From Candidatus Nomurabacteria bacterium (GTDB lineage Bacteria; Patescibacteriota; Minisyncoccia; Phycocordibacterales; UBA9973), in assembly GCA_023898605.1 (NCBI GenBank), contig CP060230.1, forward strand, positions 67,944 to 131,943: a DNA stretch of 64,000 bases. Reading direction: 5' to 3'. The notes under the pieces were generated by a model, which searched no databases, was not told where the DNA came from, and was given only the letters and a program-made list of their open reading frames with translations. Shown one piece after another: positions 1 to 17,215 of the stretch. The translations under genes and the position numbers were made by a program. Every line of letters starts with the position of its first letter. The first letter of the stretch is position 1.

Positions 1-1
1 A

Positions 2-508
2 AGAGATAGTCTAGATAATTCTCTAGGAACTCTTCTCAAGAAACTAGATACTCCTTCTGAAAAAAAACCTGATTTCAAAAAATCCAAAAAACCTTCTTTT
101 GTTTTAAAGAGCGATATTCAGAAAGGGCTGGACGAAAAGATAATTATAGAAAAAAAAGAAGAGAAACATATGAGTCTCGGTTCTCTAAAACAAAGACCTC
201 CAGAAGTAAAGTCTCCGAGTATAAAGTTTGATCCAAGCAAAGACGCTTCAGACGAGAAAAGAAATGCTCTCAAAGAAGCTCTTTCCAAGGTTTCTATAAC
301 TTCCAAGGTTTTTGTAGATAAAAAAGAGGAGAAGAAAGAAGAAATCCCAGAAGCAAAGAAAAAGACTATAGAGGATTTCAACAAAAGTATAAGTAGTATC
401 AAAGAAGACGAGCCTACTAGAGTCATAGAAAAACCAAAAGAAACAAAGAAAGAACCAGAAAAAAACAAAATTTCACCTGAAGAATTATTAAAAATTTTTG
501 ATGAATAA
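2..508 (+). CDS. hypothetical Lys/Glu/Ser-rich protein, 5' end outside window
   Basis: The frame of ORF 170..508 stays open back to nt 2. The translation is low-complexity and KE-rich, with no recognisable domain. Confidence 0.4.
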   Translation, partial: RDSLDNSLGTLLKKLDTPSEKKPDFKKSKKPSFVLKSDIQKGLDEKIIIEKKEEKHMSLGSLKQRPPEVKSPSIKFDPSKDASDEKRNALKEALSKVSITSKVFVDKKEEKKEEIPEAKKKTIEDFNKSISSIKEDEPTRVIEKPKETKKEPEKNKISPEELLKIFDE

Positions 509-1970
509 AGTAGGCAAGATCACAATATTTGTTTTTATATTTTTGTTTTTTACACAAAGGGCGAGTGCGCTCGTTATAAACGAGGTCATGTATGATCTAG
601 ATGGAACTGACACAGATAGAGAGTGGATAGAGATTTACAATGACGGAGGTTCTAGCTTGGACATAGAGGGATACAAGTTTTTTGAAGCAAACAGTAATCA
701 TACTCTTACAATATATTCTGGTAGTTATGTTTTGCCAGCAGGGTCTTATGCTGTGATTTGTCAAAAACCAGAAACTTTTCTTTCTGATTGGCCGGGTTTT
801 ACTGGTACTCTTATAGATTCTAGTTTCTCTCTTTCCAACGAGTCTGGAGAGTATCTAGAGATAAGAGATTCCAACCTCGCTACGGTTGCAACTCTTTCTT
901 ATGATCCAAGTATTGGTGCCGCTGGTGATGGTAATTCGCTTAACCGCAATGGTTCGTCTTGGATAGCGGCTTCTCCGTCTCCTGGGTCTAGCAACAATAC
1001 TTCTTCTAATTCTAGTAACGACAATACTGACAACACAACTACTACCACAACTACAACAGCTTCTTCTAGCTCCGGATCACCGACTTCTTCTGGAGAAACT
1101 GTACAGAAGCAATCTTCTTGGTCTATCACTTTTTCTATGCCGAGTTCCGGATATGTGGGTGACGAAATAGAGATAGAAGGGATTGTAAAAAATCTTTTTC
1201 TAGAAAGAATACGGTCAGGGTTTTTTTTCTGGAATATGGGAGATGGATCTGTGTATGAAGGAGAAAAACTTTCTGAGATAACACACACTTATAAATATCC
1301 AGGAGATTATATAATCGTTTTGGAGTATTGGAGAAATGGATCTTTTGAACCAGAAGTTATTGCTAGAAAAAATATAACTATAGAAAATAGTAGTATCAAG
1401 ATTTCTCCAATTTCTTCACCAAACGGAACAAGTATCAAGATAGAAAACTCTGGCAAGGGCGAGATAGATCTTGGTGGTTGGGAAGTTATGCTTGTCGGAA
1501 GTTCGTATATCTTGCCTAAGAATACTATAATCTTGCCATCAAAAACTATAACTCTTATGCCAGAGCAGACAGGATTTACCTTTGTCGGAAACTCTCTTTC
1601 TCTCATGGCGCCTGACCATACACTAGCTTCAACTTACAGTACTCAGCCCGTTACGAGTTATGCTTATAGTTCCGGGGGTGGGTCTACTGGGATTTCTAGA
1701 GCAGTTTCTTATGGTGGTGATAGTGATGTCGATGTGCTTCCTAGGGCATCATTTACCGATGAAGAATCTAGTAATCTTTCTGCAAACGTTATAGATTCTG
1801 GCATTTCTAAAAATACTTCCGTGTATGCGTTTTTTGTAATATTTCTTTTCTTGGTTTCTCTAGGATATTTGTATATAAGAAGAACGAGCTTTGCCAAAGC
1901 CGGAGAAGATATAGAAGACACGGCTCCAGAAGAAGAGGAAGACGGCTATGATTTCAAACTTCTAGAGTAA
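498..1970 (+). CDS. secreted/membrane-anchored protein with two lamin-tail-domain (LTD)-like modules and a PKD-like module
   Basis: There is an N-terminal hydrophobic signal-like segment. LTD-like strings are LVINEVMYDLDGTDTDREWIEIYN and IKIENSGKGEIDLGGWEV; a PKD-like string is GDGSVYEG..HTYKYPGDYII. It also has a poly-Thr/Ser/Asn linker and a C-terminal TM helix. Confidence 0.7.
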   Translation: MMNKVGKITIFVFIFLFFTQRASALVINEVMYDLDGTDTDREWIEIYNDGGSSLDIEGYKFFEANSNHTLTIYSGSYVLPAGSYAVICQKPETFLSDWPGFTGTLIDSSFSLSNESGEYLEIRDSNLATVATLSYDPSIGAAGDGNSLNRNGSSWIAASPSPGSSNNTSSNSSNDNTDNTTTTTTTTASSSSGSPTSSGETVQKQSSWSITFSMPSSGYVGDEIEIEGIVKNLFLERIRSGFFFWNMGDGSVYEGEKLSEITHTYKYPGDYIIVLEYWRNGSFEPEVIARKNITIENSSIKISPISSPNGTSIKIENSGKGEIDLGGWEVMLVGSSYILPKNTIILPSKTITLMPEQTGFTFVGNSLSLMAPDHTLASTYSTQPVTSYAYSSGGGSTGISRAVSYGGDSDVDVLPRASFTDEESSNLSANVIDSGISKNTSVYAFFVIFLFLVSLGYLYIRRTSFAKAGEDIEDTAPEEEEDGYDFKLLE

Positions 1971-1972
1971 AT

Positions 1973-2542
1973 CTAATTAGAAATTTTCTTCAATATAAGC
2001 GGTACTTTTTTGAAATCATTTATTAGAGTTTCTCTCATTCCTCCGTTATATAGTGCGGCTGCGGGGTGGTAAAGTGGCAAGAAATATTCTGTTTGTATAT
2101 TTTTGAATTTTTTGTGTATTAGTTTACCGTGAGCTTCCGATATTTTTAGTTCAGGAAAAAAGTCATTCATAGAGTGCCTCCCGAGAAAAATTATAAGTTT
2201 TGGTTTTATAAAGTTTAGCTCTCCCAGAAGCCACTCTCTGCACGCATCTTTTTCTTCTGGTAGAGGGTCGCGGTTATCTGGTGGGCGATACTTTACTATG
2301 TTTGTTATGTAGATATCTTCTCTTTTTAGTTTTGTCGTTTCTAGCATTTCTGACAAGAATTTGCCGGCAGCTCCTATAAAAGGCCTACCTTCCTGGTCTT
2401 CTTTTTTGCCAGGTGCTTCACCAATAAATACTATATCGGATTTCGGGTTTCCGTCTCCAAACACGGGCCTAGTTGCTGACTTTTTCAATTCACATTTTGA
2501 AGATTCGTGCCATTTTTGTTGGAGTTCTGATAGATTCGCCAT
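1973..2542 (-). CDS. uracil-DNA glycosylase, family 4
   Basis: Shows the motifs GEAPGKKEDQEGRPFIGAAGKFL and HPAAAL, which are typical of family-4 UDG. Confidence 0.8.
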   Translation of the reverse strand: MANLSELQQKWHESSKCELKKSATRPVFGDGNPKSDIVFIGEAPGKKEDQEGRPFIGAAGKFLSEMLETTKLKREDIYITNIVKYRPPDNRDPLPEEKDACREWLLGELNFIKPKLIIFLGRHSMNDFFPELKISEAHGKLIHKKFKNIQTEYFLPLYHPAAALYNGGMRETLINDFKKVPLILKKISN

Positions 2543-2583
2543 GCTTTTATTATACTTGTTTTTCTGATATAGTGCAGAGTGCT

Positions 2584-2883
2584 ATGTCAATCAAGAAATT
2601 TATAATGAAAAACGCCCTTAGGGCAAAAGGTGTTTCAAAAGAAGATGCTGAGAATTTTGCAAGCAAGATAGAGGGTAACCCAGAACTGATCGCCTCTATG
2701 AAAAAACTAGAAGAAAACAAAGAAGTAAAAGCACTTTTTGAGAAAATACAAAAAGAAATAGAAGAAAAGAAAAAAACCATGCCCGAGATGTATGCAACTG
2801 TTCAGGTTATGGGTAAATACAAACAAGAAGTCATGAAGCACAGAGATGAGCTCATGCCACTTTTTGAAATGATGAACAAGTAA
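2584..2883 (+). CDS. hypothetical small helical protein
   Basis: I place the start at the internal ATG at 2584, which avoids overlap with the UDG gene. The charged KE-rich sequence has no recognisable domain. Confidence 0.4.
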   Translation: MSIKKFIMKNALRAKGVSKEDAENFASKIEGNPELIASMKKLEENKEVKALFEKIQKEIEEKKKTMPEMYATVQVMGKYKQEVMKHRDELMPLFEMMNK

Positions 2884-2900
2884 AAAAGTCAAAAATCATA

Positions 2901-3272
2901 ATGCAAAACTCAAAAGTTAAATTCAAAACAGACTTAATTGAAAGAGCGTATGATTTTGGTTTAAAAGTTATATTTCTTTGTGACAAGTTACCGCAAAAAA
3001 GAAGTTCTTGGGTTATATCAGATCAAATAATAAGATCTGGCACATCTATCGGAGCAAACCTTGTTGAAGCAAAGTCCTCAAGTTCTAGATTGGAATTTAA
3101 AAGGTTTTACGAAATAGCCTTGAAAAGTGGGAACGAGTCTGTTTATTGGCTTAGACTTTTATTTGATGCAAGTTTAATAAACAAAAAAGATTTTGATTCA
3201 TTAAAAGAAGAGTTAGATGAAATAAATAAAATGGTCGCTAAAAGTGTTATTAGTTTGAAGAAAAAGTTATAA
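2901..3272 (+). CDS. four-helix-bundle protein (23S rRNA intervening-sequence protein family)
   Basis: The string SIGANLVEAKSSSSRLEFKRFYEIALKSGNESVYWLRLL matches the family signature (IGANI.EA....S..DF...L.IA.GS..E..YWL). Confidence 0.75.
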   Translation: MQNSKVKFKTDLIERAYDFGLKVIFLCDKLPQKRSSWVISDQIIRSGTSIGANLVEAKSSSSRLEFKRFYEIALKSGNESVYWLRLLFDASLINKKDFDSLKEELDEINKMVAKSVISLKKKL

Positions 3273-3321
3273 GTCATATTTGTACTTTTGACTTTTAAAT
3301 TTTAATTTTTAAATTATTATT

Positions 3322-4449
3322 ATGCTCAAGATAGGAATTGTTGGACTTCCCAATGTAGGTAAATCAACGCTTTTCAATGCGCTTACAAAAAAGTGTGTTC
3401 CGGCTGAGAATTATCCGTTTTGTACTATAGACCCATCTGTGGGTATTGTTCCTGTGCCAGATGAAAGAGTAGAACTACTTTCAAAGTTTTCTAATTCCGA
3501 GAAGTCTATACCGGCAGCGATAGAGTTTGTCGATATAGCAGGACTCGTAGAAGGTGCAAGCAAGGGAGAGGGCTTGGGAAATAAATTCCTGTCTCATATA
3601 AGAGAAGTAGATGCGATACTAGAAATGGTTAGACTTTTTCCCGCCTCCGCCAAGGCTACAGGCGGGCAAGCCCCTTCTGGCGATATTGTTCATGTCTATG
3701 GGAATATAGACCCACTCAGAGATATCAAGGTTATAAATCTAGAACTTATACTTGCTGATCTAGAAGTTGCAGAAAAAAGAATCGGAACTCTAGCAAGAGA
3801 TGTGAGAAGTGGCAACAAGGAAGCGATACTAGAAGAATCTATTTTGAAAAAAATAATCCCCGCTCTAGAATCAGAAAAGATGATAAACGAAATCGAGTTT
3901 GATGAGAAAGAGGCTGCAAAACTAAAAAGCATGAACTTTCTAACTTCCAAAAAGATAATTTATGGCCTCAACAAGAAAGCCGGTGCCAAAAACTTTGATG
4001 AGTCTGATCCAGAAAAGTTCAAAGAGTTTTGTGATTATATCGAGTCTTCAGGTGCTGGTTGGGTTCTACTCGATGCCAAGATAGAAGATGAACTCAAGGA
4101 TTTCGAGGGTTCAGAAAAAAACGAGATGAGAGAAGCTATGGGCGGAGATGATGATGGTGTGGACCATCTCATAAAAAGGTCTTATGAAATTCTAGGATTA
4201 GAAACATATCTAACAACTGGTCCAGATGAAACTCGTGCGTGGACTATCAAGAAGGGTAGTACTGCACCAGTTGCTGGTATGGCTATACATACAGATTTCA
4301 AAGACAAATTTATCCGTGCAGAAGTTGTCTTCTGGAAAGATCTACTTGATGCAGGTTCTTATGCTGAAGCTAGAGCAAAGGGAAAAGTTAGGACGGAAGG
4401 GAAAGACTATATCGTAAAAGACGGAGATGTGATTGAATTTAAAATATAA
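3322..4449 (+). CDS. ychF: ribosome-binding ATPase YchF
   Basis: Has the P-loop GLPNVGKST, then FCTIDP, DIAGLVEGAS, and the C-terminal TGS-like string TRAWTI..GSTAP.AG.IHTDF..FIRAEV. Confidence 0.95.
   Translation: MLKIGIVGLPNVGKSTLFNALTKKCVPAENYPFCTIDPSVGIVPVPDERVELLSKFSNSEKSIPAAIEFVDIAGLVEGASKGEGLGNKFLSHIREVDAILEMVRLFPASAKATGGQAPSGDIVHVYGNIDPLRDIKVINLELILADLEVAEKRIGTLARDVRSGNKEAILEESILKKIIPALESEKMINEIEFDEKEAAKLKSMNFLTSKKIIYGLNKKAGAKNFDESDPEKFKEFCDYIESSGAGWVLLDAKIEDELKDFEGSEKNEMREAMGGDDDGVDHLIKRSYEILGLETYLTTGPDETRAWTIKKGSTAPVAGMAIHTDFKDKFIRAEVVFWKDLLDAGSYAEARAKGKVRTEGKDYIVKDGDVIEFKI
3640..3678 (+). repeat. in-frame 39-nt GC-rich hairpin module inside ychF (encodes PASAKATGGQAPS)
   Basis: Stem cccgcct (3640-3646) pairs with aggcggg (3660-3666). 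It interrupts the conserved YchF string F..D.IVHV. A related core (caaggctac.ggcggg) recurs upstream of leuS. Confidence 0.6.
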
Positions 4450-4468
4450 AAATATTTTAAATTCAATC
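4431..4468. repeat. perfect 17-bp-stem palindrome spanning the ychF stop codon
   Basis: The sequence is gattgaatttaaaatat-aaaa-atattttaaattcaatc. Confidence 0.8.
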
Positions 4469-4488
4469 ATCCTGAGCTTGTCGAATGG

Positions 4489-4509
4489 GTAATAGAATTC
4501 AAAATATAA
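4489..4509 (+). repeat. second copy of the ychF 3' end (reads VIEFKI-stop)
   Basis: gtaatagaattcaaaatataa compares with gtgattgaatttaaaatataa at the true ychF terminus. It shares the 19-bp atagaattcaaaatataat with 4818-4836. Confidence 0.7.
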
Positions 4510-4514
4510 TTAAT

Positions 4515-4543
4515 TTGACATTAATACAATATTGTGTTAGTAT
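4515..4543 (+). promoter_or_regulatory. sigma70-like promoter TTGACA-17-TAGTAT
   Basis: TTGACA lies at 4515-4520, followed by a 17-nt spacer and TAGTAT at 4538-4543. Confidence 0.55.
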
Positions 4544-4603
4544 GTAGAGAAACTAGGATTTTATTCTAACGCTGTCTAGTACAATCAAAAAAAAGGAGGC
4601 AAT

Positions 4604-4741
4604 ATGTTTTGGCATACTATTGGTCAATACCAGTACGAACATGATGCAAATGGGTACACGGGATGGTACCGTTGCGTCGGAGGTAAAATGGCCAACGGCC
4701 ACTGGCCCGAGTGGAATAACAGAACTGGAGCCACGCGGTAA
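4604..4741 (+). CDS. small ORF, 45 aa (MFWHTIGQYQYEHDANGYTGWYRCVGGKMANGHWPEWNNRTGATR)
   Basis: A strong SD (AAGGAGG) precedes the ATG. The ORF has its own promoter and terminator and is locally GC-enriched. It falls below the ORF-track size cutoff. Confidence 0.4.
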   Translation: MFWHTIGQYQYEHDANGYTGWYRCVGGKMANGHWPEWNNRTGATR

Positions 4742-4759
4742 AATCGCAAAAAATCAACA

Positions 4760-4794
4760 CCCCATCTAGTAGCGAAAGCGAACGATGGGGTTTT
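4760..4794 (+). terminator. intrinsic terminator after the 45-aa ORF
   Basis: Stem ccccatc pairs with gatgggg and is followed by tttt. Confidence 0.6.
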
Positions 4795-4814
4795 GAACTT
4801 ATTAAGGTGGCAAG

Positions 4815-4835
4815 GTCATAGAATTCAAAATATAA
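4815..4835 (+). repeat. third copy of the ychF 3' end (reads VIEFKI-stop)
   Basis: The sequence is gtcatagaattcaaaatataa. It is followed directly by a terminator. Confidence 0.7.
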
Positions 4836-4840
4836 TAAAA

Positions 4841-4862
4841 CCCCGTTTTCACGGGGCTTTTT
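4841..4862 (+). terminator. intrinsic terminator (probably the ancestral ychF terminator)
   Basis: Stem ccccgt pairs with acgggg and is followed by a T-run. Confidence 0.6.
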
Positions 4863-4899
4863 CTGTATTTGTTTTGTTTTTTTGATATAATGGAAATAC

Positions 4900-5202
4900 A
4901 TGCAAAAGTACGTAAAATATTCTCTTAAATTAGCATATAGTTTTGTTTTGTCAGTCGTATTTTCTTTTTGTTTATCTGCAAGTATACCTATGATCTTTGG
5001 TGACAATTTAAGAGATTTTTTTGATTTTCAGGATAAACCATATGGATATGTAGGATTGTTTCTGCTTACTATATCTAGTATTTTATTTTTTGTGTTATAC
5101 GAAAAAAATAATAGTATCTTTAGGTCATTTGAAAGAATAACAATACTTCTTATTTATTTTGTCATTTTATCCTCATTTTTTACAGCGAGTGTGCAATATT
5201 AA
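4900..5202 (+). CDS. hypothetical polytopic membrane protein
   Basis: Contains several hydrophobic helices. No family was recognised. Confidence 0.4.
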   Translation: MQKYVKYSLKLAYSFVLSVVFSFCLSASIPMIFGDNLRDFFDFQDKPYGYVGLFLLTISSILFFVLYEKNNSIFRSFERITILLIYFVILSSFFTASVQY

Positions 5203-5206
5203 ATAT

Positions 5207-5488
5207 ATGAAAACTATAGAAAAGATATACAAATTTATATACTCAGTCTTTCTTTCTCTACCAATTATTTTACTTATAAATGTAACTTTTATTCTTTTTT
5301 TTAAGAGAGCCTCTTTTTTTCATAGTTTTGCCACTATTGGCATAGCTATAGTTCTCTCTATACCTTTTACATTTTTGATATTCAGATCAGTTTTAAGAGA
5401 GCGAAGATTTATTTTGGTTGTAGAAAGGTCTATTATAGTTTTAGTATTCTTTTTTATTGCATTTATTTTTTCAAGATTAATTTTCTAG
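5207..5488 (+). CDS. hypothetical membrane protein
   Basis: I place the start at the internal ATG at 5207, just after the upstream stop. The protein has hydrophobic helices. Confidence 0.4.
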   Translation: MKTIEKIYKFIYSVFLSLPIILLINVTFILFFKRASFFHSFATIGIAIVLSIPFTFLIFRSVLRERRFILVVERSIIVLVFFFIAFIFSRLIF

Positions 5489-5527
5489 ACAAAAATTAAT
5501 CTTTGTTTTATATAAATCAGTATCTCT

Positions 5528-5725
5528 TTACTCTTCAAAAATTCGGGGGATTTTTACTACAATTGATAGACATGGATCATCGAAATTATGGATAAGAAAT
5601 GGCGGAGACGCTCTCCCTTCACTTCTTTTGACAACGATACTCATATCATCATTTTTTTCAGGGATGAAAATCGTTGCCCCAGTCGGACAGGTATAGCATT
5701 TCTGCTTTTTGTTTTTTTCTGACAT
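5528..5725 (-). CDS. hypothetical protein, 65 aa
   Basis: Supported only by the ORF itself. No motif was recognised. Confidence 0.25.
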   Translation of the reverse strand: MSEKNKKQKCYTCPTGATIFIPEKNDDMSIVVKRSEGRASPPFLIHNFDDPCLSIVVKIPRIFEE

Positions 5726-5831
5726 AAGAAAGATCCAATTTAGTTATCACCATATTACATCATATAAACTATAGTGTCAAGTTGTAATATTTATCGAAAA
5801 ATATACGTTTTTTTGCTATAATCGAGGGACA

Positions 5832-5870
5832 ATGGAGGGGAAATATGACCATAAAAACATAGAAAAAAAT
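5832..5870 (+). pseudogene. relic of the leuS 5' end (MEGKYDHKNIEKN..)
   Basis: YDHKNIEK parallels the real LeuRS N-terminus NYDHKGIERKW. The relic runs straight into a GC-rich insert. Confidence 0.5.
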
Positions 5871-5932
5871 GGCCCTCCTTCGCTTCTTCTTCGCCAAGTC
5901 TACGAAGAACAAGGCAAGGCTACGGCGGGCGC
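5871..5932 (+). repeat. GC-rich structured insert between the leuS 5' relic and the functional leuS start
   Basis: Contains the hairpin ttcttcg..cgaagaa and the core caaggctacggcgggc, which is also seen inside ychF. Confidence 0.5.
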
Positions 5933-5970
5933 ACAGATATATGCACTAAGGTGAAATATTTAATTTAAGT

Positions 5971-8900
5971 ATGAATAACTATGATCACAAAGGAATAGAA
6001 CGTAAGTGGCAAGAGAGGTGGGAGAAAGACGGTATTTATACTGTTTCGGACAAGGAAGAAAACAAAGATAATTTCTATACTCTAGTAGAATTTACATATC
6101 CATCTGGAGATTTGCATGTTGGCCACTGGTACGCGTTTGCAGTGCCAGATATTTTCGCACGATATAAAAGGATGCAAGGATACAACTCACTTTATCCTAT
6201 GGGATTTGATGCGTTTGGACTACCAGCAGAAAATGCAGCGATAAAACTAGGCGCAGATCCAAAGGTTTGGACATATGAGCAGATGGACAAGATGCGTGGG
6301 CAATTCAAAACAATGGGAGCAAGTTTCGACTGGGATAGAGAGGTAGTTTCTTGCGACCCGAATTATTACAAATGGACACAGTGGATGTTCAACCAATTTC
6401 TAAAAAATGATTTGGTTTATCGCGATACTACCAAGGTAAACTGGTGTCCCAAAGACAAGACAGTTCTTGCCAATGAACAAGTTGTAGACGGCAAATGCGA
6501 GCGATGTGGAAGTGAAGTAGAGCAGAAGAACCAGGATCAGTGGATGATTCGTATTACAAAATATGCCGATAGATTGATAGACGATCTGGATATTCTAGAT
6601 TGGCCAGATGCGATAAAAGATGCACAAAAAGCATGGATAGGAAGAAGCGAAGGAAGTGAGATAAGTTTTTCTCTAAATTATGAAAAAGAAAAAGTAAAAA
6701 ATGAATATTTCAAGTTTAGACCAGAACTTGTTGAATTAATTGAAAAAGGTTTGAAGACAGCAACCTTTAGAATGGAAGCTAAAAATGTTTCTGTTGGCGA
6801 TATTGTTAGTTTGATTAATTGGTCAGATGGCAAAGAAAGTAATCAAAAAGAGTTTGATAAAGCTAAAATAATAAAAGTCTCGGAACATAAATTAGGAGAT
6901 TTGCCACTTGATTATCCTGGTCACGAAAAAGATTCTTCAGTAGAAAAAAGACTTGCAAGGTATCAAGAATACTATGGCGACCACATAACAAACGATTCAA
7001 CTGTTTATATATATGAATTTCTTCCTCTTTCAATTCGTGTTTTCACCACTCGCGCAGACACACTATTTGGCGTGACATATGTTGTACTTGCTCCAGAACA
7101 CCCACTAGTAAATAAACTTCTTGATCAAGTAGAGAACAAAGAAGAAGTAGAAAAGTATATAGAAGAAACAAAGAAAAAGTCAGAACTAGAAAGACAAATT
7201 GGTTCAAAAGATCCTTCGACTGGCTCAGGACTAGGAAAAACTGGCGTAGAATTAAAAGGTATAACTGCAATAAACCCAGCAAATGGTGAAGAAGTGCCAG
7301 TTTGGATTGCAGACTATGTGCTTGCTGGGTATGGTACAGGTGCTGTTATGGCGGTACCTGCTCACGATGAGCGAGATTTTGAATTTGCAAAGAAATATGG
7401 ATTAGATTCTAAAATAGTTATTGTGAATTCGACCGGAGAGTGTACAGACGATGCTATTTCAAGAAATGTTGTTAAATCTTTTATAGAAAAGGACGGAAAT
7501 GTATATTTAGTAAGAGATATAGGTCCAAGCGGAAAGTCTTACTGGTCACTTCCTGGTGGTGGATATGAAGATGCAGAAGACGATATCTCTGCACTTACAA
7601 GAGAAATCATGGAAGAAACTCCATTTCGAAATATAAAAATTGGACAATTCATAGGGGCATCAAGACATTGCTATGATTTCAAAGCTATAAAAAATTCACG
7701 TTTAACAAAAATATTTTACGCAAGTTATGATATTGAGAATAAAAATTCAAACCCTCAAGTTCCTGGAAACTGGTTTCCAAAAGATGAGGCAATAAGGATG
7801 CTTTTGGAAGATGGAATAATAATAGAAGGAAACATACTAAGTAACTACTTTGAAGGAAAAATTAATACAGATAATGGAATTTTGATAAATTCTGGAAATT
7901 TTAATGAAATAACTTCAGAAGAAGCTAAGAAAAAAATCACAGAATTTGTTGGAGGAAAAATGGTAAAGACTTACAGACTTCGTGACTGGGGAATAAGCCG
8001 CCAGAGATATTGGGGTTGTCCTATACCTATAGTTTACGATCCGGAAGGAAAAGCTCACGCGATCCCAGACGAACATTTGCCATGGATATTGCCGACAGAT
8101 GTAGATCATACTCCAGACGGAACACCACCTCTTGCAAGAAGCAAAGAGCTTTTTGAACGAACAGAAAAAATATTTGGCGAAGGTTGGAAGCCAGAAGTAG
8201 AAACAATGGATACATTTGTAGATTCTTCTTGGTATTTCTATAGATACTTAGATAACAAAAACGAAAAAGAATTTGCATCGATAGATAGTATGGATGCATG
8301 GATGCCGATAGATATGTACATGGGAGGAGCAGAGCATACAACTATGCACTTACTATATTCACGATTCTGGACAAAAGCTCTTTATGATCTCGGACTAGTA
8401 AAAGATAACGAGGCATATAAGATGAGACGAAACAGAGGGCTTATACTTGGTCCAGATGGAAACAAGATGAGTAAATCAAAAGGAAACGTCATAAATCCAG
8501 ACGAAGTTGTAGATAGGCTTGGTGCAGATACGGTGCGATTGTACCTTTGTTTTATGGGGCCATACGGAGTGACTGTAAACTATCCGTGGGATCCAAACGG
8601 GGTTGTAGGTGTGAGAAGATTTCTAGAAAGAGTTTGGAAATTGAAAGAAAAAATAGATCCAGAGAAAAAAGTTTGTCGTACAGACCCACTTGTACACAAA
8701 ACAATCAAAGGCGTCACGAGTGACATGGAAGAGTTCAAGTTTAACACTGCTATATCCAAGATGATGATACTATCCAACGCTTTGGAAGGAGAGGATAAGA
8801 TAGTAGAAGCTTCTTATAAAGCCCTGCTTCGTCTTCTTTCACCATTTGCACCACACATAACAGAAGAGTTATGGCAATCTTTTGGACATTCTTCGTCAGG

Positions 8901-9159
8901 CTCAGAACAAGGAACAGAAAGTATCCACCTTTCTTCTTGGCCAGAATACGATGAGAGCATGACAAAAGACGAGACCGTTATGATTGGTATTCAGATTAAC
9001 GGCAAGGTTCGTGGTGAAGTAGAGGTTGGAGACGAAGATACAGAAGAATCAGTGAGAGAGAAGGTTATGTCTATAGACAAGATAAAACCATGGTTAGAAG
9101 GAAAAGAAATCAAGAAATTTATCTACGTAAGCAAGAAGATTGTTAACATTGTCGTATGA
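5971..9159 (+). CDS. leuS: leucyl-tRNA synthetase with two extra inserted domains
   Basis: Has a HIGH-type motif (HVGH), the CP1 strings TTRADTLFG and AVPAHDERDFEFAKKYGL, and KMSKS. At 1062 aa it exceeds the roughly 800-860 aa I recall for bacterial LeuRS. Confidence 0.95.
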   Translation: MNNYDHKGIERKWQERWEKDGIYTVSDKEENKDNFYTLVEFTYPSGDLHVGHWYAFAVPDIFARYKRMQGYNSLYPMGFDAFGLPAENAAIKLGADPKVWTYEQMDKMRGQFKTMGASFDWDREVVSCDPNYYKWTQWMFNQFLKNDLVYRDTTKVNWCPKDKTVLANEQVVDGKCERCGSEVEQKNQDQWMIRITKYADRLIDDLDILDWPDAIKDAQKAWIGRSEGSEISFSLNYEKEKVKNEYFKFRPELVELIEKGLKTATFRMEAKNVSVGDIVSLINWSDGKESNQKEFDKAKIIKVSEHKLGDLPLDYPGHEKDSSVEKRLARYQEYYGDHITNDSTVYIYEFLPLSIRVFTTRADTLFGVTYVVLAPEHPLVNKLLDQVENKEEVEKYIEETKKKSELERQIGSKDPSTGSGLGKTGVELKGITAINPANGEEVPVWIADYVLAGYGTGAVMAVPAHDERDFEFAKKYGLDSKIVIVNSTGECTDDAISRNVVKSFIEKDGNVYLVRDIGPSGKSYWSLPGGGYEDAEDDISALTREIMEETPFRNIKIGQFIGASRHCYDFKAIKNSRLTKIFYASYDIENKNSNPQVPGNWFPKDEAIRMLLEDGIIIEGNILSNYFEGKINTDNGILINSGNFNEITSEEAKKKITEFVGGKMVKTYRLRDWGISRQRYWGCPIPIVYDPEGKAHAIPDEHLPWILPTDVDHTPDGTPPLARSKELFERTEKIFGEGWKPEVETMDTFVDSSWYFYRYLDNKNEKEFASIDSMDAWMPIDMYMGGAEHTTMHLLYSRFWTKALYDLGLVKDNEAYKMRRNRGLILGPDGNKMSKSKGNVINPDEVVDRLGADTVRLYLCFMGPYGVTVNYPWDPNGVVGVRRFLERVWKLKEKIDPEKKVCRTDPLVHKTIKGVTSDMEEFKFNTAISKMMILSNALEGEDKIVEASYKALLRLLSPFAPHITEELWQSFGHSSSGSEQGTESIHLSSWPEYDESMTKDETVMIGIQINGKVRGEVEVGDEDTEESVREKVMSIDKIKPWLEGKEIKKFIYVSKKIVNIVV

Positions 9160-9196
9160 CAAAAGAGTTAGTTTTGTTTATACTTTAGTTTAGATT

Positions 9197-11473
9197 ATGC
9201 TAAAAAAAATCTCTAGAAAAATAACGAGAGGAGATAGACTGCTATTTTTGTTCTTGTCTTTGGGTATGTTTTTGTCTATGACATTTTTCTTACCCGACAC
9301 TTCTCTTATAGATTCTGCTTCAAAAGGTTTTTTCTACTCACTATTTGCATTGGTTATATTTATAGCAACTGTCTCACTTGTTTTATTTAGAAACAGATTT
9401 TCCTTTTCTAGCAGGCCGTTTCTTTATAGTGTTATTTTATTGGTTGTACCACTATCGTTACTTTTGTTTTTGACAAACTCTTTTTCTAGATCTTTTTTGG
9501 GAAGCGATTTTAGTCCAAACACGTATATATTTCTTTTTTCTAGTATTGTATATATTTCTTCAGCGCCATTTTTTGTAAATTCAGAAAGGAGGATAACGAC
9601 ACTACTATTTTTGCCACTCATTGTCTTTCTTATTGCAGCTAGCCTTTCTTTCTTGCAGGTTTCTGGAGTAGATATATTTTCTGGTGAGTTTATAAATCCT
9701 GTAGGTTCATGGGCGGCACTTTCTGTATTGGCTGGACTTATGTTTGTGTTTGTTATGGTTTCGCTCGAGTTTTTCAAACTAAACAAAACAGAAAAAGTTT
9801 TATCTTATATATTGGCAATTTTGTCACTACTTATTTTTACCCTTGTTAGAAACGAGGCGATACTTGTAGCTGTGGGACTTACTTCACTATCGGTTATCTC
9901 TCTCAAGACACTTCTTCCTGGACACAGAGAAGCTAGAGCGCCATTTTACGCGTTCTTTTCGATCATACTTGTAGCACTACTTCTTTTCGTGGGCGGATAC
10001 TTCAGTAATTTCTTGGGGAACACTTTTGGACTTTCTTTTGTAGATATAAGACCATCTTTTAGTTCAACTACTTCTGTCATAAAAAGTAGTTGGGGTGGTG
10101 AGGGATTCCTTGTCGGTTCTGGTATAAACAGCTTCTCTAATTCTTGGAATTTGTATAGACCAGAAGCAGTTATTTCTTCCGATATTGCGTTCTCGAGTTT
10201 TTCAAATGGTTTTGGTTATATAATGACTCTTTTTGGAGAACTTGGTCTTATTGTCGGAGTTGCTTTGACGATATTTTTGATTCATGGATTAATCATGGCT
10301 TGTCGAGTTTCTATGATGGTGGTTAGTGACAAGAGTGAAAATAGAAAAAATATCTTTTTGATTCTTCCACCTATCATGATGCTTTATAGTTTTGCAATAC
10401 TACTACTTTATTCTGGTTCTGTACCAACGGTTGCTTTGTTTGTTTTGAGCTACGCACTTGTACTTGCGTCACAGAGATTCCTTGGCATCGGAAAAACTTT
10501 TAGAATAGATATTTCCAAGGATCCAAGACTTGCATTTGTTTCTATGATTTTTGGCATATTCCTTTCTATATTTGCAGTCTTTTCTATAGCAGGTGTTTCT
10601 TCTCGGATGACTGGAAACTTCTTTTATCAAAAAGCTATAAATAGTGCTAGGGCAGGGAACCTAGATTCATACTACTTATTTACAGACAAGGCATCGAGAT
10701 CGAATCCCGCAGATTTTGCCCTTATAGAGAGAGCAAGAGCAGAAATTTCTATACTCGGTAGAGCGCAAGCTGACGGAACACAGATAGACGAAAATCGTGC
10801 TAGTAATATTTTCTCTAGTGCAGAGAGTTATGCTCTTCGGGCAATAGAGTATGACGCAAGAAACGCAGACAATTGGGCGTTCCTAGGCAACTTATACAAA
10901 AACTTTATTTCAAAAGACAACGAACAGTTTTACCAAAACTCTATAGTCGCCTTTGACAAAGCTCTAGAGTTCCGACCAAACGATCCGTCTATATATCTTT
11001 TCGAAGGAGAAGCTGCTCTTAGAAAAGATGATGTGGCTCTTGCAAGATCTATGGGAGAAAAAGCACTTTCTATAAAAAACAATTATGGAGATGCATTTGT
11101 TTTCTTGATATCACTAGAAAGTAGTATAGAGAACTACAAAGATGCTGTTAGACTTGCTGAAGCAATGGTGGAGAATATACCGAGCATAACTTCTTTCCAG
11201 ATTTTGGGAGAAGTATATGATTTGTCTGGTGACAAAACAAAAGCTAGGAGTGCATACGAAACAGCATACTTGCTTTCTGGTAGAAGCTTTGAGCTTTCAA
11301 ATGTCCTTGCTAGCTTTTATTCAAAATATGGTATAAATGATGGTCTAGATATGCTTATAAGTGACGAGAATTCACTGAGAGGAAATATAGACTATATAAA
11401 CTATCTTCTTGGTCTCAAGAGTAAGCCTGTCGTAGAAGAGACTTCTCCAGAAGAAGAATCTTCCGAAGAGTAA
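9197..11473 (+). CDS. polytopic membrane protein with C-terminal TPR repeats (O-antigen-ligase/Wzy-like candidate)
   Basis: The N-terminal part has more than 10 predicted TM helices. The C-terminal part has TPR-like repeats (AWAFLGNLY, AFDKALEFRPND). Confidence 0.5.
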   Translation: MLKKISRKITRGDRLLFLFLSLGMFLSMTFFLPDTSLIDSASKGFFYSLFALVIFIATVSLVLFRNRFSFSSRPFLYSVILLVVPLSLLLFLTNSFSRSFLGSDFSPNTYIFLFSSIVYISSAPFFVNSERRITTLLFLPLIVFLIAASLSFLQVSGVDIFSGEFINPVGSWAALSVLAGLMFVFVMVSLEFFKLNKTEKVLSYILAILSLLIFTLVRNEAILVAVGLTSLSVISLKTLLPGHREARAPFYAFFSIILVALLLFVGGYFSNFLGNTFGLSFVDIRPSFSSTTSVIKSSWGGEGFLVGSGINSFSNSWNLYRPEAVISSDIAFSSFSNGFGYIMTLFGELGLIVGVALTIFLIHGLIMACRVSMMVVSDKSENRKNIFLILPPIMMLYSFAILLLYSGSVPTVALFVLSYALVLASQRFLGIGKTFRIDISKDPRLAFVSMIFGIFLSIFAVFSIAGVSSRMTGNFFYQKAINSARAGNLDSYYLFTDKASRSNPADFALIERARAEISILGRAQADGTQIDENRASNIFSSAESYALRAIEYDARNADNWAFLGNLYKNFISKDNEQFYQNSIVAFDKALEFRPNDPSIYLFEGEAALRKDDVALARSMGEKALSIKNNYGDAFVFLISLESSIENYKDAVRLAEAMVENIPSITSFQILGEVYDLSGDKTKARSAYETAYLLSGRSFELSNVLASFYSKYGINDGLDMLISDENSLRGNIDYINYLLGLKSKPVVEETSPEEESSEE

Positions 11474-17092: not shown

Positions 17093-17215
17093 GCTCAGTA
17101 CCGACGTCCCGACATGTGGTCGTCGGGAGCACGGAGAGCCGACAGAATCGTCGGCTTTGGTTAGAGCACTCGCCTGAAGAGCGAGGTGTCGGCAGTTCGA
17201 GTCTGCCCCCGAGCA
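17093..17215 (+). pseudogene. 3' part of the ghost tRNA-Phe with a ~57-nt double-hairpin insert after GCTCAG
   Basis: 17157-17216 is a 60-bp perfect repeat of 17008-17067. There is no matching 5' acceptor strand. The insert holds the hairpins tcccgac/gtcggga and gccgac/gtcggc. Confidence 0.6.

Follow-up and report, generated by a model that had tools for sequence, protein, structure and literature searches.

A Nudix-fold domain nested in the CP1 editing domain of a Candidatus Nomurabacteria leucyl-tRNA synthetase, and strain-level replacement of such cassettes in related genomes

Aminoacyl-tRNA synthetases are among the most conserved of all proteins, and the CP1 domain of leucyl-tRNA synthetase (LeuRS) serves both as a drug target and as a model of proofreading. 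The canonical LeuRS enzymes (1h3n and 2byt from T. thermophilus; 4aq7 and 4arc from E. coli) carry the HIGH and KMSKS motifs together with the threonine-rich and Asp editing motifs. The nearest known Nudix proteins (PF00293), in turn, are free-standing hydrolases: the diadenosine tetraphosphate (Ap4A) hydrolase 3i7u, the E. faecalis MutT/nudix protein 2azw, BdRppH 3ees, NudI and NudG/Orf135. Here, we analysed a stretch of 64,000 nucleotides from a Candidatus Nomurabacteria bacterium (GenBank assembly GCA_023898605.1, contig CP060230.1, positions 67,944 to 131,943 of the forward strand; hereafter the window, with positions counted from its first letter), in which the leuS gene encodes a LeuRS bearing all of the above motifs. 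Unlike the canonical enzymes, however, this LeuRS has two extra enzyme-type domains in CP1 and is devoid of the leucine-specific domain. One of the two is a Nudix-fold domain which, in contrast to the free-standing hydrolases, sits in a loop of a domain that belongs to another enzyme; it is only 17-24% identical to solved Nudix structures and has Pro in place of Gly22 of the Nudix box. No published description of Nudix insertions, or of insertions in Patescibacteria, in LeuRS or in other aminoacyl-tRNA synthetases was found in the searchable literature, and in a 2026 survey of domain insertions the LeuRS editing domain appears only as an insert, with 0 instances as a host (PMC13114784).

The host gene, leuS (5971-9159, + strand), is a single uninterrupted open reading frame of 1062 amino acids (aa). 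Its product is a bacterial-type LeuRS, as it scored 901.7 bits with the TIGR00396 leuS_bact model (cut-off 548.4) and was aligned by T. thermophilus LeuRS 1h3n at E 1.5e-198 in a search of PDB. A preliminary description of this DNA, made from the letters alone, had proposed that the protein carries about 150 extra residues after CP1 and that they form a Nudix-hydrolase-like domain. The extra residues are real, since positions 7426-7872 translate in the LeuRS frame to the 149 residues quoted there. We delimited the whole insert, at what we call site 2, to 157 aa (aa 479-635; 7405-7875, + strand), between FAKKYGL (aa 472-478) and GILINSGNF (aa 636-644). Insert-free close relatives have 4-46 residues at this place (either 4-6 or about 40), and T. 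thermophilus LeuRS has about 8 (residues 370-379). The Nudix assignment was well supported: the Pfam NUDIX model PF00293 matched the insert (aa 506-610, nucleotides ~7486-7800, + strand) with 43.0 bits against a gathering score of 21.1 (E 5.6e-11), and likewise matched 43/43 aligned LeuRS inserts. The AlphaFold2 model of the insert, with a predicted local distance difference test score (pLDDT) of 84.1 (81-93 for the Nudix region in the model of the whole protein), shows the alpha/beta/alpha fold of Nudix proteins, and its box lies on a loop-helix-loop. When this model was used as a Foldseek query, 527 PDB matches were obtained at E<=0.001, and all 50 among the matches listed were Nudix proteins. 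The location, on the other hand, had to be corrected. The insert interrupts the LeuRS editing-domain model PF13603 at profile position 148 of 185 and breaks the alignment with T. thermophilus LeuRS at residues 370/379. Because of this split and this break, the insert is placed within CP1 and not after it, with some 40 residues of the domain left on its C-terminal side; in the T. thermophilus enzyme the editing domain extends to about residue 417. Thus, the segment is a Nudix-fold domain inserted in a bacterial-type LeuRS.

The Nudix box, GGYEDAEDDISALTREIMEETPF (aa 530-552; 7558-7626, + strand), fits G-x5-E-x7-R-E-U-x-E-E-x-G-U with Pro at the penultimate Gly position, just as first described. 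It agrees with the consensus at 8/9 specified positions, and the catalytic R544, E545, E548 and E549 are all present. In the structural model the box falls on the predicted loop-helix-loop, whose helix spans positions 60-71 of the insert, and in the six-frame translation of the window the motif occurs once only, in this insert. The catalytic Glu residues, whose loss in orthologues had been named as evidence that would speak against a Nudix enzyme, are retained in most of them (full box in 57/69 domains and in 26/27 of a second set, see below). Judging by these residues, the domain is probably enzymatically active.

As regards the substrate, no NCBIfam cut-off for a curated Nudix subfamily was reached by the window insert or by the 43 homologous inserts. 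The NCBIfam families matched most often, though weakly, were the RppH models (40/43 inserts); for the window insert, RppH (NF001938 and relatives) gave 26.5 bits, below the cut-off of 116, and the MutT 8-oxo-dGTPase model TIGR00586 gave 12.3 bits, below its cut-off of 97.9. The best PDB sequence match was the Aquifex aeolicus Ap4A hydrolase 3i7u (E 8.6e-5, 25.6 bits), which was also the best Foldseek match to the insert model; a profile of the inserts searched against PDB sequences returned generic Nudix matches only. Diadenosine polyphosphate (ApnA) hydrolases are described as having a conserved X-loop Tyr about 16-18 residues past the box (PMC5389931). The window insert has a Tyr 16 residues past the box, and 63/83 LeuRS Nudix domains have one at +15 to +19, a signature that is insufficient alone to assign an ApnA hydrolase. 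The Pro of ADP-ribose-specific enzymes (about 16 residues past the box) is missing in the window insert and present in 1/83 LeuRS Nudix domains, and the NADH motif SQPWPFPxS is missing in the window insert and found in 0/83. Among anti-phage defence models, PADLOC returned a single match, the candidate Nudix model PDC-S07 (E 3e-10; 22/43 inserts), which reflects generic similarity and comes without system context. The match to 3i7u, the Tyr past the box and the lack of the ADP-ribose Pro and of the NADH motif may be read as weak pointers toward dinucleoside-polyphosphate or nucleoside triphosphate (NTP)-type substrates.

We then asked how the module evolves, by calculating the ratio of non-synonymous to synonymous substitution rates (dN/dS) for seven LeuRS pairs with co-inherited inserts and measurable synonymous divergence. 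In these seven pairs dN/dS of the Nudix segment was 0.075-0.136, about equal to that of the LeuRS N-terminal body, and amino-acid identity of the Nudix segment followed that of the body as well (e.g., 89.5% versus 90.0%). Since a dN/dS of 0.08-0.14 applies over the whole domain, it is the protein sequence that is maintained, beyond mere preservation of the reading frame. The Nudix module is under purifying selection.

Comparison of near-identical strains showed that the module can be replaced as a unit. Over 1891 pairs of LeuRS, insert identity and body identity were nearly uncorrelated (r=0.17). L001 and L003 have alike gene order, flanking DNA that is 98.9% identical upstream and 96.2% downstream, and LeuRS proteins with 0 amino-acid differences in their first 340 residues, but the former carries a Nudix domain and the latter an unrelated 126-aa module, with no DNA similarity over 580 versus 476 bp; each of these alleles was recovered from two independent assemblies. 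L005 and L006 (the latter a complete genome), whose flanking DNA is 98.0% identical on each side, have a 169-aa Nudix domain and a 41-aa loop, respectively. L007 and L008, with flanks 99.9% identical upstream and 94.4% downstream, have two Nudix domains that are 32% identical to each other. The breakpoints lie in the most conserved flanking codons (approximately AHDERDFEFA upstream; GxLxNSG...ITEFVGGK...YRLRDWG downstream), a placement that fits ordinary homologous recombination. Rate heterogeneity was considered as the cause of differing inserts in 97%-identical bodies and was rejected, because the flanking DNA is 94-99.9% identical with synonymous sites included and, moreover, because co-inherited inserts evolve as fast as the LeuRS body. 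Strain-level replacement of the cassette with sharp DNA breakpoints is thus shown, and since near-identical strains have another module or none at site 2, the module is an accessory that can be exchanged and not a constant component of the enzyme.

A further argument for transfer, based on a pair in which the insert seemed more conserved than the body (P0034 and P0082: insert 93%, core 75%), was dropped, because in a sliding-window comparison the two bodies were mostly 85-98% identical with two divergent patches. These patches (22-50% identity, columns ~240-320 and ~760-840) are away from the insert. They suggest further recombination tracts, so that leuS would be a mosaic in this group.

The distribution of the module was assessed in two sets, the best 120 LeuRS homologues and the best 80 species-representative genomes. 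Nudix domains were present in 67/120 homologues, which contain 69 such domains, nearly all at site 2; the box was full in 57, restricted to REUxEE in 4 and variant in 8. Among the species representatives the domain occurred in 27/80, with a full box in 26/27. The labels of the genomes of the latter set that bear it include Nomura-, Kaiser-, Uhr- and Moranbacteria and 'Parcubacteria', and in both sets the carriers are mostly labelled as Patescibacteria. There is also a separate LeuRS cluster (L056, L060, L073), at most 58-60% identical to other LeuRS, in which metagenome-assembled genomes labelled 'Bacilli bacterium' and 'uncultured Muribaculaceae' (labels as in the records) have a canonical Nudix domain at the same loop, while LeuRS of Ca. 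Ventrenecus avicola, from the same cluster, is without it. The trait may thus extend past Patescibacteria. An apparent 1585-aa LeuRS match in L076 was rejected, the gene being that of a neighbouring MetRS.

In the host protein, the editing and catalytic motifs were invariant across the 120 homologues, independently of the insert state. In the window, the post-transfer editing site of CP1 has its threonine-rich peptide, TTRADT (7045-7062, + strand), intact, and T359, T360, R361, D363 and T364 of this peptide are invariant in 120/120 homologues. The same holds for D466, R468 and D469 of AHDERD (7360-7377, + strand), which contains the conserved editing-site Asp and lies just 5' of the recombination breakpoint found in related genomes.

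The second insert of the window LeuRS, at site 1, is an ASCH-domain module of about 117 aa (aa 237-353; 6679-7029, + strand), located between GRSEGSEISF and TTRADT inside CP1, at T. thermophilus LeuRS residues 237/242. Relatives have about 10 aa there. Pfam ASCH PF04266 scored 31.6 bits when the whole protein was searched and 34.5 bits for the segment alone (cut-off 21.2); confidence of the structural model was lower in this insert (pLDDT 42-84). The CP1 block with both inserts (~6600-7950, aa ~211-660, + strand) differs in codon composition, as its G+C content at third codon positions (GC3) is only 17-23%, in comparison to 27-45% elsewhere in leuS and a mean of 29.4 +/- 4.2 for 30 other long open reading frames of the window. 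This low GC3 could stem from the import of DNA or from weaker selection on codons; it is compatible with import of the block but is no proof of it.

Nudix and ASCH are not the only domains found in these loops. Before TTRxDT, site 1 may hold ASCH, Ser-hydrolase/alpha-beta hydrolase, DUF559, nucleotidyltransferase, Nudix, Ham1/ITPase or HAD domains, among which the Vsr-like endonuclease DUF559 was matched with 123 bits. Besides Nudix, site 2 holds a nucleotidyltransferase and several modules of 100-140 aa without a family match. At site 3, after APEHPL, P0005 has an ASCH domain that is, by inspection, closely similar to the site-1 ASCH of the window, so one cassette type can occupy different sites. 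Site 4, which follows site 2, holds HAD in P0071. Some LeuRS combine three Nudix domains with HAD, others Nudix with a Ser-hydrolase. LeuRS homologues of 985-1376 aa have up to four extra domains distributed over the four CP1 sites; these large multi-domain proteins (P0005, P0007, P0009, P0012, P0025, P0053, P0065, P0071, P0091, P0101, P0109, P0114, P0120, P0136, P0154 and P0164) carry Ser-hydrolase, DUF559, ANT(2'')-like nucleotidyltransferase, Ham1/ITPase, HAD, double or triple Nudix, and modules without a family match.

Free-standing relatives of the cassettes were also found. P0272, a Nudix protein of 157 aa, is 55% identical to the Nudix domain embedded in LeuRS P0021, and its variant box, with Q at position 7 and A at position 15, is that of the embedded subgroup. 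Since the variant boxes are common to this free-standing protein, they are a subfamily trait and not a sign of decay. The P0272 gene belongs to an array in which about 15 small genes follow one another on one strand (L089, positions 1-10400 of a 68-kb Logan SRR23332760 contig), which includes GDPD, four Nudix, 2H-phosphoesterase-like, Ham1, APH-like, aldo-keto reductase, LDcluster4, Ser-hydrolase, flavin reductase, HAD and His-phosphatase genes. The Ser-hydrolase of this array is 30-43% identical to those embedded in LeuRS. Judged by family assignment, the cassettes overlap with small free-standing hydrolase gene families, namely Nudix, Ser-hydrolase, HAD and ITPase/Ham1.

The explanation that we favour, with a probability of about one half, is that the module is an autonomous accessory Nudix pyrophosphohydrolase domain which is exchanged by recombination in a CP1 loop and is not integral to aminoacylation or editing. 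The Nudix domain would fold autonomously and, sitting in-frame in a surface loop of CP1, would be translated as part of LeuRS. Homologous recombination via the conserved flanking LeuRS codons would swap the cassette between strains, its place being taken by a different Nudix variant, by a small domain of an unrelated kind or by a plain loop. The domain would act in trans on a nucleotide-type substrate, NTP or dinucleoside-polyphosphate 'house-cleaning' being our best guess for its role, and LeuRS would be mainly a tolerant, well-expressed carrier. Several points weigh against this explanation. CP1 handles the tRNA 3' end, and its repeated use as a host in many lineages could mean functional coupling. 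Moreover, the window Nudix is an outlier: its identity to other LeuRS inserts is about 20-28%, and its best relative among 1.84 billion representative proteins was found by HMMER at only E 3.4e-9 (this exhaustive search gave no close relative below E 1e-9, and a word-indexed search gave one weak match). The outlying position and the Pro in the box make activity less certain here than for a typical cassette. Also, as no curated Nudix subfamily was reached, 'house-cleaning' is only a guess.

If the coupling were genuine, the module could clear Ap4A or other Np4N made by the synthetase, or act on a tRNA or RNA end positioned by CP1, e.g., by removing a pyrophosphate or a cap-like group, and the other cassettes would then be alternative 'end-repair' activities. 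We consider this unlikely, although a number of observations are in its favour: the top match to Ap4A hydrolase 3i7u in both sequence and structure searches, the ApnA-signature Tyr, the frequency of weak RppH matches, the fact that the long proteins checked among the best matches to the window insert, the top match included, were all LeuRS, and the vicinity of the insert sites to the editing-site motifs in sequence. However, the RppH score is far under its cut-off, near-identical strains manage without the module, and the same loops hold unrelated enzymes (Vsr-like endonuclease, HAD, alpha/beta hydrolase). A close free-standing Nudix homologue exists, and the invariance of the editing-site residues in every insert state argues against a tight tie to LeuRS chemistry. 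LeuRS is not known to be a strong producer of Ap4A, which also counts against such coupling. A broader version, in which the modules use the grip of CP1 on the tRNA 3' end against groups installed by damage or toxins, or destroy signalling nucleotides derived from the synthetase, appears improbable to us. It would hardly be expected, either, that the groups in question are pyrophosphate, acyl or extra nucleotides on tRNALeu and that the strain polymorphism reflects an arms race, and we would put little weight on the accompanying idea of the LeuRS editing domain as a recombination-driven display rack for small enzymes that are no mere passengers, in Patescibacteria and possibly in other reduced-genome bacteria. 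Of this version, the polymorphism of the cassettes as such is shown above.

It is rather doubtful that the module is non-catalytic, whether as a sensor or regulator that binds nucleotides, as a module with a part in structure or interactions, or largely as a selfish passenger that persists through the rarity of precise deletion from an essential gene. The Pro in place of the conserved Gly of the window box, the high divergence of the domain, the 8/69 domains without the box Arg or a Glu, and the dispensability of the module between strains would all agree with this. The Nudix clan does have non-enzymatic members (PMC5389931), and flanking homology would be enough for spread, so that mobility hallmarks would be unnecessary. 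Nevertheless, the window box retains all of R, E and EE, as do the boxes of about 85-96% of homologues, the low dN/dS extends over the whole domain, and the variant boxes are a trait of a subfamily with a free-standing member. Clean loss to a 41-aa or a 4-6-aa loop does occur, thus deletion is not blocked. Finally, conserved genes of these bacteria often contain introns or inteins, and our data are metagenome assemblies; an assembly chimera, a group I or II intron or an intein could in principle mimic an insertion. We regard such an origin as extremely improbable, since the reading frame is unbroken at either junction, both in the window and in about 94 homologues that come from independent assemblies, identical alleles come from separate samples, and purifying selection acts at the protein level. 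Rfam found tRNAs only over the window and no intron family, and Pfam, even at E<=1, detected no Hint, intein or homing-endonuclease domain in the LeuRS protein. Around the two inserts, the repeat search gave only A/G-rich chance repeats and neither terminal nor target-site repeats. On these negative results, an intron, intein or mobile-element origin was rejected.

Apart from CP1, the window LeuRS has its HIGH motif as HVGH (6115-6126, + strand) and KMSKS at 8464-8478 (+ strand), and the anticodon-binding and C-terminal domains are present. In the alignment to 1h3n there is no counterpart of T. thermophilus residues ~582-637, the leucine-specific domain; its place is marked by GLILGPDGN directly joined to KMSKS (window ~8455-8470, aa ~829-833). 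The order leuS, tetratricopeptide repeat (TPR) membrane protein, MurJ, LepA is common to related loci, and G+C of the window is 36.7%. A public protein that is 99.5% identical to the window LeuRS (5 differences), P0002, is named by NCBI 'class I tRNA ligase family protein [Candidatus Nomurabacteria bacterium]', a product name in which the Nudix and ASCH domains are invisible, while several insert-free relatives among the same matches are named leucine--tRNA ligase; presumably, the inserts disturb the NCBI naming rule for LeuRS. Elsewhere in the window, Rfam reported a partial tRNA match at 17153-17207 (+ strand; 31.9 bits, model positions 9-63), just 3' of tRNA-Phe, and ARAGORN called no tRNA at this position.

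The wider meaning is that one large bacterial radiation hosts whole, selected enzyme domains in the CP1 loops of an essential synthetase. Near-identical strains exchange these domains, so that an essential gene conceals a part of the accessory genome. For annotation, this means that metabolic reconstructions of minimal genomes overlook the embedded enzymes; for phylogenetics, that leuS is mosaic; and for protein engineering, that CP1 offers natural, validated permissive insertion sites. If the targets of the modules were tRNA or by-products of the synthetase, the modules would constitute a new layer of translation quality control or defence.

Three known systems can be set beside the cassettes. 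The IleRS with an N-acetyltransferase domain (NCBIfam NF040702) is likewise a synthetase fused to an unrelated small enzyme domain, but the extra domain of LeuRS is nested in the editing domain, differs from strain to strain and represents one among many alternative cassettes. Inteins and homing introns resemble it in being foreign, horizontally spreading sequences at precise sites of a conserved essential gene, with presence/absence polymorphism in close strains, and one LeuRS cassette even belongs to an endonuclease family (DUF559). In contrast to them, the LeuRS insert is devoid of a splicing domain and of intron RNA, remains part of the protein and is itself selected as an enzyme, and its spread is explained by ordinary recombination in the flanks. 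Mosaic genes with variable regions exchanged by recombination are well known from pneumococcal pbp genes and from the variable domains of flagellins and pilins. As in these genes, conserved flanks serve as recombination arms, and sharp identity breakpoints are seen in near-identical genomes. Here, however, a housekeeping enzyme of the cytoplasm is the host, and what varies is neither an antigenic nor a drug-target segment but a whole enzymatic domain of changing family.

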